DNA of 7,681 nt, from IMG/VR virus record IMGVR_UViG_2695420372_000015, one strand, 5' to 3'. The position numbers are program-made. This stretch comes from a virus. Its lineage: Duplodnaviria > Heunggongvirae > Uroviricota > Caudoviricetes. Positions 6,101-7,681 of the stretch are shown here, one piece after another (the first letter of the stretch is position 1; every line of letters begins with the position of its first letter).

Positions 6101-7681
6101 AGCTTGAGGAAATTTATCAAGAGCTAAGTGCTTTTGTAAGTGGGCTGATGGATAAGAGAAATAGTGTATTTGAGGTGAGAAATGAAAATACTGATGAGGT
6201 TGTCGGAGCACTGAGGGAGGGGATGACGATAGATGACAGGGATGGTTATATCAGGGAGCTTTTTTTTCTGTATTCATTGAAAGTAAAAATTGAGGAAAGT
6301 AGACAAGGTAAAGAAGGTTCTAAATGTAAAGTTTATGGTCTGTTATGTCCGCATCACTCTTCAGAGCTATATGGTGATCTACGAGCAATGAAATGTCTTG
6401 TGGAAGGATGCAGTGATGATTTTGATCCTTTTGATATTATTAGGGTGCCGGATCTTACTTACAACAAAGGAGCTTTACAATGTGGATGATTAGAGGGAGG
6501 TCCTGTGAGCCTGCTTATCATTTTGTGTAAACGCTTTTTTTTAAAAGTGACCATCAAGGTGGCTACCAAGCTCGATTATAAAGTAGCATTGTCCATTTCT
6601 GTGATGTGGATTGCCAGCCAATCACTTTGTTTGCTGACTTGTAGTCGGGGATATCGGGAGCACCTTGCATTTCCTGACGGCGTGCTATACGACACCTCAC
6701 TGTACACACGTAGTTACAAATTTACCCCAGCGCAATGGTCTCAGGAGAGGGGCGATTAATTTCATCAGATATTCTTCGTCAGAAGGTGGTGATTATCCAT
6801 GATATTTGTGTATCGACTTTTTATAAGAGGTTTCTGGTCGGGATTATATAAAACTGCGGACACGTCGTATGCAAGAAGGCGCTACGGTTTTCTGATAAAC
6901 CTTTCGCCAGCATCATCTGCTTCAGCCCAGTAAAAAGAGACGCGAAAAATGCACAACAGGCACCACACGTCATGCATGGATTAGGATTGCTCATAAATTC
7001 ACTACTTGAGTATCAGTAATGTTAAGGGATATCAGGAAATATTTTATGAGAAAGAAAAACAGCAAACTGGTCAAAAATAACTCAAAGAAGGCTTGGAATA
7101 TTCTTATTGAATTCAACGTAGTTTATTGATTTTTCGTGTATGTTTTTAAGACATTTATTCCAAGAAAAATTTATAACCTTTTGATTTTGCGATTCGGTAT
7201 CATCGGTCTCGAAAACCGGAGTAGGGGCAACTCTACCGGGGGTTCAAATCCCCCTCTCTCCGCCACTTTATCAATGACTTATCTCCCGACTTCCCGCCTT
7301 GCTTTTCCTAAACAGAACAATCGTAGAATATTCTTGAAGGGTTAGATCGTCACTGTTTTCTGTTCGATACTGTGACATTCAGCACTTGATTCCTATGGAT
7401 CTGACAGGAAGCTTTCGAGCGAAAATGTGCAGTTATTCAGTCGTTTTCTTATCGCTCACCATTATTCTTTTAGACATTCATCCTATGAAACTGCCGCAAA
7501 GTTGGTGGTGGGAACTGAAGTTGCGTAGAGAAGGGGTCAATAATTGAGTCAAAAAAGGAACGCGGCCGTCAGATTAAAGGTAAGCGACTCGTCAGAACCG
7601 TATTGATATTTACTGAGAGCTCAGATCAACTTTCCAGGGCAACAGATCGCGTACCCGGTTTGCCGGCCAGTCCTGGATATG

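Follow-up and report, generated by a model that had tools for sequence, protein, structure and literature searches.

The attP and attR sites of phage lambda are organized around a core that lies between arm-type Int sites and IHF sites. In O157:H7, the prophage residing at serU is presumably Sp14/CP-933U. The serU gene is documented in the literature as a site shared by prophages and islands in O121 and ExPEC strains, and in O145:H28 the prophage at serU carries nleB, nleF and nleH (PMC7067040). For elements that integrate into tRNA genes, both the principle of the displaced fragment and a class of attP centred on the anticodon have been described (PMC4383910), the latter being class A of Islander (Williams 2002, as cited in PMC4383910).

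Here we analyze the right-hand part of such an element in a stretch of 7,681 nucleotides of viral DNA (IMG/VR record IMGVR_UViG_2695420372_000015), hereafter the window. We conclude with high confidence that window positions 7204-7265 constitute the attR core, the int-distal junction of a lambdoid prophage of about 50 kb in serU.

The serU fragment and its flanks

Positions 29-90 of serU, the tRNA-Ser(CGA) gene of E. coli K-12, recur at window positions 7204-7265 on the plus strand with 62 of 62 nucleotides identical (CGGTCTCGAAAACCGGAGTAGGGGCAACTCTACCGGGGGTTCAAATCCCCCTCTCTCCGCCA). The initial annotation had reported a 62-nt copy of the 3' part of this tRNA reaching from the anticodon stem to CCA, and both its coordinates and its tRNA identity proved right. 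The stretch begins with the second base of the anticodon stem and takes in the anticodon (7210-7212), the variable arm, the T arm and the 3' strand of the acceptor up to CCA, and it occurs once within the window; an exact match of this length cannot have arisen by chance. Identity to serU breaks off precisely at 7204, and the preceding 28 nt (7176-7203) share 2 positions with the 5' part of the gene. The absence of a 5' half, also claimed initially, is borne out by this unrelated upstream sequence and by searches of the window with ARAGORN, which predicted 0 tRNA genes, and Rfam, which gave no tRNA match. When the 5' side was re-examined for a full-length tRNA with these two programs, by alignment to serU and by folding, none was found there, and the core plus the 28 nt upstream did not fold into a cloverleaf (z = -0.68). 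At a permissive threshold, Rfam matched the core to an antisense plastid psbI-rps4 (trnS-region) family and to an 18-nt tmRNA T arm, both of which we dismissed as by-products of tRNA-like sequence. In KU052038, the identical 62-nt stretch is annotated as a pseudo tRNA-Ser.

To the right of the core, the first 120 nt past 7265 are 100% identical to the K-12 sequence downstream of serU in an ungapped comparison, and 7204-7579 matches K-12 at 99.5% identity over 377 aligned positions. By this identity, 7266-7579 (plus strand) is the B' arm, native chromosomal spacer between serU and yodB. The same spacer runs on into yodB and zinT in 14EC007 and RM13514, and in genomes without the insertion sequence described next, the match to the window ends at 7579. 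The sequence from 7580 begins GTAAGCGACTCG, and 7580-7681 (minus strand) comprises the outermost 102 nt of an ISCro1-like element of the IS66 family, on its transposase-proximal side. It carries the GTAAGCG inverted-repeat end and agrees base for base, as judged by eye, with the ends of annotated ISCro1 copies in two other sequences (L007 and L008) whose flanks are unrelated. In K-12 coordinates, the IS end lies 314 bp past the 3' end of serU and approximately 255 bp from the yodB stop. The remainder of the element lies beyond the window, as would the 8-bp target duplication, GATTAAAG, that is expected for the insertion. The initial annotation, which had called the whole of 7266-7681 chromosomal, was thus correct for the serU-yodB spacer up to 7579 but not for 7580-7681: the final 102 nt of the window are to be assigned to the IS.

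The IS junction was absent from all complete E. coli genomes searched. Within IMG/VR, its pattern was found in one contig (L011, IMGVR_UViG_2698536301_000018), the closest to ours, which is identical to window 2790-7672 and ends in the same ISCro1 copy, a typical short-read break at a repeat. The ISCro1-like element is probably the place where our contig breaks as well, and its position at the contig end would explain why short-read assembly failed to extend the sequence.

The region to the left of the core (184-6489, plus strand) is the end of a lambdoid prophage that carries its late and cargo genes, recognized by Pfam and by 98% identity to serU prophages. Pfam identified, all on the plus strand, Lom (184-807), a lambdoid tail fibre (866-2185), NleB2 (3332-4312), an N-terminal fragment of NleC (4346-4636), a disrupted NleH (about 4954-5865, with an NleH-like kinase at 5030-5734) and NleF (5920-6489). 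In 91 complete E. coli genomes, the serU prophage end is 98% identical to window 1-7579 and is annotated in agreement with it.

Several features of this region were observed in passing. The nleC gene is cut to its first 96 codons and nleH is split among several ORFs; in 14EC007 and RM13514, the two genes carry a pseudogene annotation. A stretch of 700 bp that comprises the C-terminus of the tail fibre and the first part of nleB2 is perfectly duplicated in tandem (2090-2789 and 2790-3489, 100% identity), and the duplication has created a chimeric ORF (2632-3156, plus strand) in which the NleB N-terminus is fused to the C-terminal domain of the tail fibre. The 700-bp unit is single-copy in relatives, and its duplication could be either a recent event or an assembly artefact. 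Between the nleC fragment and nleH, window 4555-4765 matches the Rfam sRNA family IS009 below threshold (58 bits; gathering score, 117).

Taken together, the locus shows tRNA 3' identity that ends in CCA and has no 5' half, with phage DNA on one side and the native serU flank on the other. The reading as attR was upheld by this arrangement, phage DNA to the left and serU-downstream chromosome to the right, by related complete genomes with this cargo end, in which an intact serU and a tyrosine integrase are located about 50 kb to the left, and by attP-type contigs that join both arms (see below). The fragment is a recombination scar, in principle a substrate for excision, and not a gene.

The crossover zone and the arms of the attachment site

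Compared with K-12 serU, the tRNA at attL, the opposite prophage end, has two substitutions, A48G and T59C. The two positions (window 7223 and 7234) form a base pair of the variable arm, which makes the change from A48-U59 to G48-C59 compensatory. We scanned IMG/VR for the junction of the tRNA 3' end with the P' arm and retrieved 60 contigs, of which 55 had the full 90 nt upstream and could be typed; the 5' half of serU lay upstream in 51 (attL) and a phage arm in four (L031, L035, L042 and L045). Wherever the P' arm follows the core, G..C was found at 48/59, in 54 of these 55 junctions (4/4 attP and 50/51 attL) and also at attL of 14EC007 and RM13514. Wherever the chromosomal spacer follows, A..T was found, in all seven junctions typed by regular expression; the A..T junctions named are those of the window, 14EC007, RM13514, L011, L072, L073, SerU-LTIIb and the ev099 fossil described below. 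The core of phage mEp332, aligned apart from this typing, has A..T too.

The variant thus travels with the downstream arm, which places strand exchange 5' of position 48, within 7204-7222 (plus strand). This zone corresponds to tRNA positions 29-47, the stem-loop of the anticodon (loop, 7208-7214); the exact crossover point would lie inside it, as delimited by the polymorphism. It follows that 7223-7265 is the displaced native 3' part of the tRNA and that phage-derived DNA ends inside 7204-7222. The prophage end initially placed at about 7265 therefore has to be moved: the linkage of A48..T59 and G48..C59 to their arms sets the boundary between phage and host within 7204-7222. An identity block reaching from tRNA position 29 to the 3' end, with exchange confined to 29-47, corresponds to the anticodon-centred class A.

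Two attL tRNAs among the 51 in IMG/VR stood apart. One has the anticodon change G36T, giving CTA instead of CGA, and another has kept the host-type A48..T59 despite its P' arm; mutations or alternative exchange products are possible explanations for both.

The four contigs with a phage arm upstream are each continuous from the P arm through the core and the P' arm to int. In L035, L042 and L045, the upstream arm is exactly window 7176-7203, a segment that is also identical in attR of 14EC007 and RM13514; L031 has a variant of it. To the left, these three contigs carry the nleH-nleF cargo of the window (from window 4884 or 5291 to 7281, 99%), and after the P' arm they continue with int, a DUF4224 gene and exo. 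The attP junction would read as window 7176-7222 joined to ...GCCAAAATTCAATCACTTAC. Such P-O-P' contigs may derive from either circular phage DNA or tandem lysogens, and whichever their origin, the junctions indicate that the left arm in the window and the int-proximal arm belong to one attP. A megablast search of the phage collection returned no free phage with a P-O-P' attP. Two records matched by int, ON470580 and ON470583, were considered as free phages and rejected, being prophage extractions that include host mtfA and asnT.

The P arm, the phage-derived arm of attR, covers about 120 bp (7081-7203, plus strand) and is conserved among serU-targeting phages that differ in their upstream cargo; similarity to SerU-LTIIb, ev099, mEp332 and L031 begins at 7081-7088. 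It contains the exact 9-mer CTTGGAATA at 7092-7100 (plus strand) and, inverted, at 7156-7164 (minus strand). These are the only two occurrences in the whole window, where 0.07 are expected, and the site at 7156-7164 shows no variation among the P arms of the window, 14EC007, ev099, mEp332 and SerU-LTIIb. The same 9-mer is found in tandem in the int-proximal P' arm of attL, as two exact copies and one near copy (L002 5983-6014), and this tandem is kept in most attL contigs. When one mismatch was allowed, CTTGGAATA was not enriched over the whole window or L002, and the motif is informative only as an exact, arm-clustered 9-mer.

An IHF-consensus site, AATCAAAAGGTTA, is present at 7174-7186 (minus strand), 18 nt upstream of the core. 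Perfect matches to the IHF consensus WATCAANNNNTTR number two in the window, this one and 7269-7281 (plus strand) in the B' arm, against 0.48 expected, and the two flank the core. At 7174-7186, the consensus positions are conserved in ev099 and mEp332, and the N positions vary. Judged from sequence and placement, the CTTGGAATA copies are candidate arm-type sites for integrase and the IHF-like motifs are putative IHF binding sites.

For approximately 16 nt beyond CCA, the B' and P' arms resemble each other (TCAAT.ACTTA; window 7266-7281 and L002 5938-5952), a stretch shared in part with the IHF-consensus match at 7269-7281. Homology of attP to the serU locus thus reaches slightly past the tRNA gene. 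A scan of 6900-7681 for promoters and terminators gave nothing above shuffled expectation.

Related prophages, fossil copies and competing explanations

In 14EC007, the same attR junction adjoins yodB, zinT and msrQP, and a complete lambdoid prophage lies upstream of it. At the far end of this prophage are an exonuclease gene, a DUF4224 gene, a frameshifted tyrosine integrase gene and an intact tRNA-Ser(CGA), adjacent to mtfA and asnT. O145:H28 RM13514 has the same layout, and the two copies of the 62-nt core are in direct orientation, with a spacing of 50,059 bp in 14EC007 and 50,328 bp in RM13514. Of 5426 complete E. coli genomes, 1143, O157 among them, contain the attL junction (mtfA end, serU and 3' part of int) at a query coverage of at least 80%, and 117 contain the attR junction at that coverage. 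Among species-representative genomes, only one E. coli and one Shigella flexneri representative had the attR or fossil junction. By analogy with these relatives, the genome from which the window comes would carry an intact serU and int at its other prophage end. None of the 60 IMG/VR contigs returned was the attL contig of the genome of L011.

An intact copy of the integrase (341 aa, ON470580) has PF00589 together with N-terminal SAM-like and central domains. The gene is annotated as frameshifted in 14EC007 (L002 5965-7015), O157 FDAARGOS_293 (L009 1766-2813) and RM13514 (L077 1200-2250), and many prophages of the serU type may be unable to excise on their own.

We propose that the phage attP carries a copy of the 3' part of serU, from anticodon stem to CCA, between the P arm (approximately 7081-7203) and a P' arm running into the 3' end of the int gene. 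The tyrosine integrase would have exchanged strands within the anticodon stem-loop (7204-7222). At attL, beside mtfA, the host 5' half and the phage-borne 3' part would then have combined into an intact tRNA with G48-C59, and attR would have received the phage P arm and the displaced native 3' part (A48-U59), with the native spacer towards yodB after it. An ISCro1-like element of the IS66 family inserted later, 314 bp downstream.

A similar junction was also observed in free lambdoid phages. ev099, mEp332 and PhiR70_1 contain a fossil serU attR consisting of the P arm, the 62-nt fragment and approximately 277 bp of serU-yodB spacer. It corresponds to window 7085-7542 at 93-94% identity (4004-4462 in both ev099, L004, and mEp332, L006; 6105-6563 in L074), and lies approximately 2.1 kb from the phages' own int, with an AraC-family gene and IS fragments after it. 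Of 5426 complete E. coli genomes, 526 contain, at a query coverage of at least 80%, a 1.7-kb block of ev099 that includes the fossil and the AraC-family gene; a defective prophage occupying the lambda att site of RM10410 is one carrier. DLP12 of K-12, suspected because of appY, does not contain the fossil. Aberrant excision is the likely origin of the fossil, which recombination would then have spread. Since it retains the full core, it might act as a secondary attachment site for integrases of the serU type; if it did, it would permit integration of one prophage within another, or exchange of modules. The full version of this idea, an ancient aberrant excision product in a non-essential phage region, now in about 10% of complete E. 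coli genomes and serving as a portable secondary site for the serU integrase, strikes us as unlikely. The fossil is in any case a warning for island finders that a matching tRNA fragment is not always the end of an element, and, given its presence in other prophages, a second copy of the core elsewhere is by itself no proof of attL or of serU.

These copies raise the question of whether the block in the window is itself a fossil attR inside a prophage integrated elsewhere, and not a true boundary between prophage and chromosome. Free lambdoid phages do hold window 7085-7542 at 93-94%, the ev099 block recurs in 526 complete genomes, the RM10410 prophage among them, and the window stops in the IS before reaching yodB. 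However, host-type sequence in the window continues up to the IS at 7579, 37 bp beyond the point (7542) where the fossil ends, and identity to K-12 is 99.5% (7204-7579, 377 positions) as opposed to 97% for the 340-bp matching part of the ev099 fossil. Fossils are followed by the AraC-family gene rather than by spacer, and the P arm and the whole cargo end of the window are those of genuine serU prophages abutting yodB. We consider a fossil origin of the block very improbable. Even less credible, to the point of being negligible, is an origin without any relation to site-specific recombination, in which the fragment would be a truncated or degenerate tRNA gene or a tRNA pseudogene arising from local duplication. 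Seen alone, the fragment would pass for such a gene, being a partial tRNA without a 5' half; yet its break coincides exactly with the change from phage DNA to tRNA-identical sequence, the native serU flank lies downstream, and the identical break point recurs in attL, attP and attR of many genomes along with the arm-linked polymorphism.

A further possibility refines the attR reading rather than opposing it: the junction may be the dead scar of a defective, locked-in prophage, a real attR that is unused because the integrase has been inactivated. The integrase is frameshifted in 14EC007, O157 FDAARGOS_293 and O145:H28 RM13514, and with int disrupted in these three closest relatives examined, the junction may no longer be recombined. 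The decay of the cargo, with nleC truncated and nleH disrupted in the window and its relatives, and the IS inserted beside the junction point the same way. On the other hand, intact 341-aa copies of the integrase exist, and attP-configured contigs with the same cargo end imply recent circular or tandem forms. We hold this refinement tentatively, at slightly less than an even chance, and retain the broader conclusion that the fragment is the attR core of a prophage in serU.

Comparison with known serU prophages and related systems

The attR described here is an ordinary scar, familiar both in type and in location: prophages are documented at serU, and the finding as such is already known. It brings no new biology of its own, as the displaced-fragment rule underlies existing island finders. 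Its use is in annotation, where the fragment fixes the right boundary of a prophage carrying T3SS effectors to within 19 nt.

Among the lambdoid serU prophages of EHEC/STEC, those of O145:H28 share with the window the cargo end of nleB2, nleC', nleH and nleF and the same attR beside yodB, and the attL of O157 FDAARGOS_293 (serU, integrase and DUF4224) is 100% identical to that of 14EC007. The window differs from the O145:H28 and O157 serU prophages in its extra 700-bp tandem copy and in the ISCro1-like insertion 314 bp past the core, and neither the extra 700 bp nor the IS junction was found in the best-matching complete genomes. SerU-LTIIb (KU052038, a partial prophage record) has, like the window, the P arm, the 62-nt fragment, the spacer and yodB, at 97% identity over window 7088-7579. 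Upstream of the P arm it departs from the window, with the LT-IIb enterotoxin and other tail-fibre genes in place of the Nle effectors.

The predicted sites recall the lambda layout, in that each arm contains CTTGGAATA, in mixed orientation, and sites of the IHF consensus adjoin the core. In contrast to lambda, whose 15-bp core lies in the gal-bio spacer, the serU core belongs to a tRNA gene and has an identity block of 62 bp. In organization, the site resembles class A integration into tRNA genes: the end next to int has a regenerated tRNA and the opposite end a displaced 3' fragment, identity begins in the anticodon stem, and crossover takes place within the anticodon stem-loop. The serU case does not differ from it in kind; here, the crossover is delimited by polymorphism alone.
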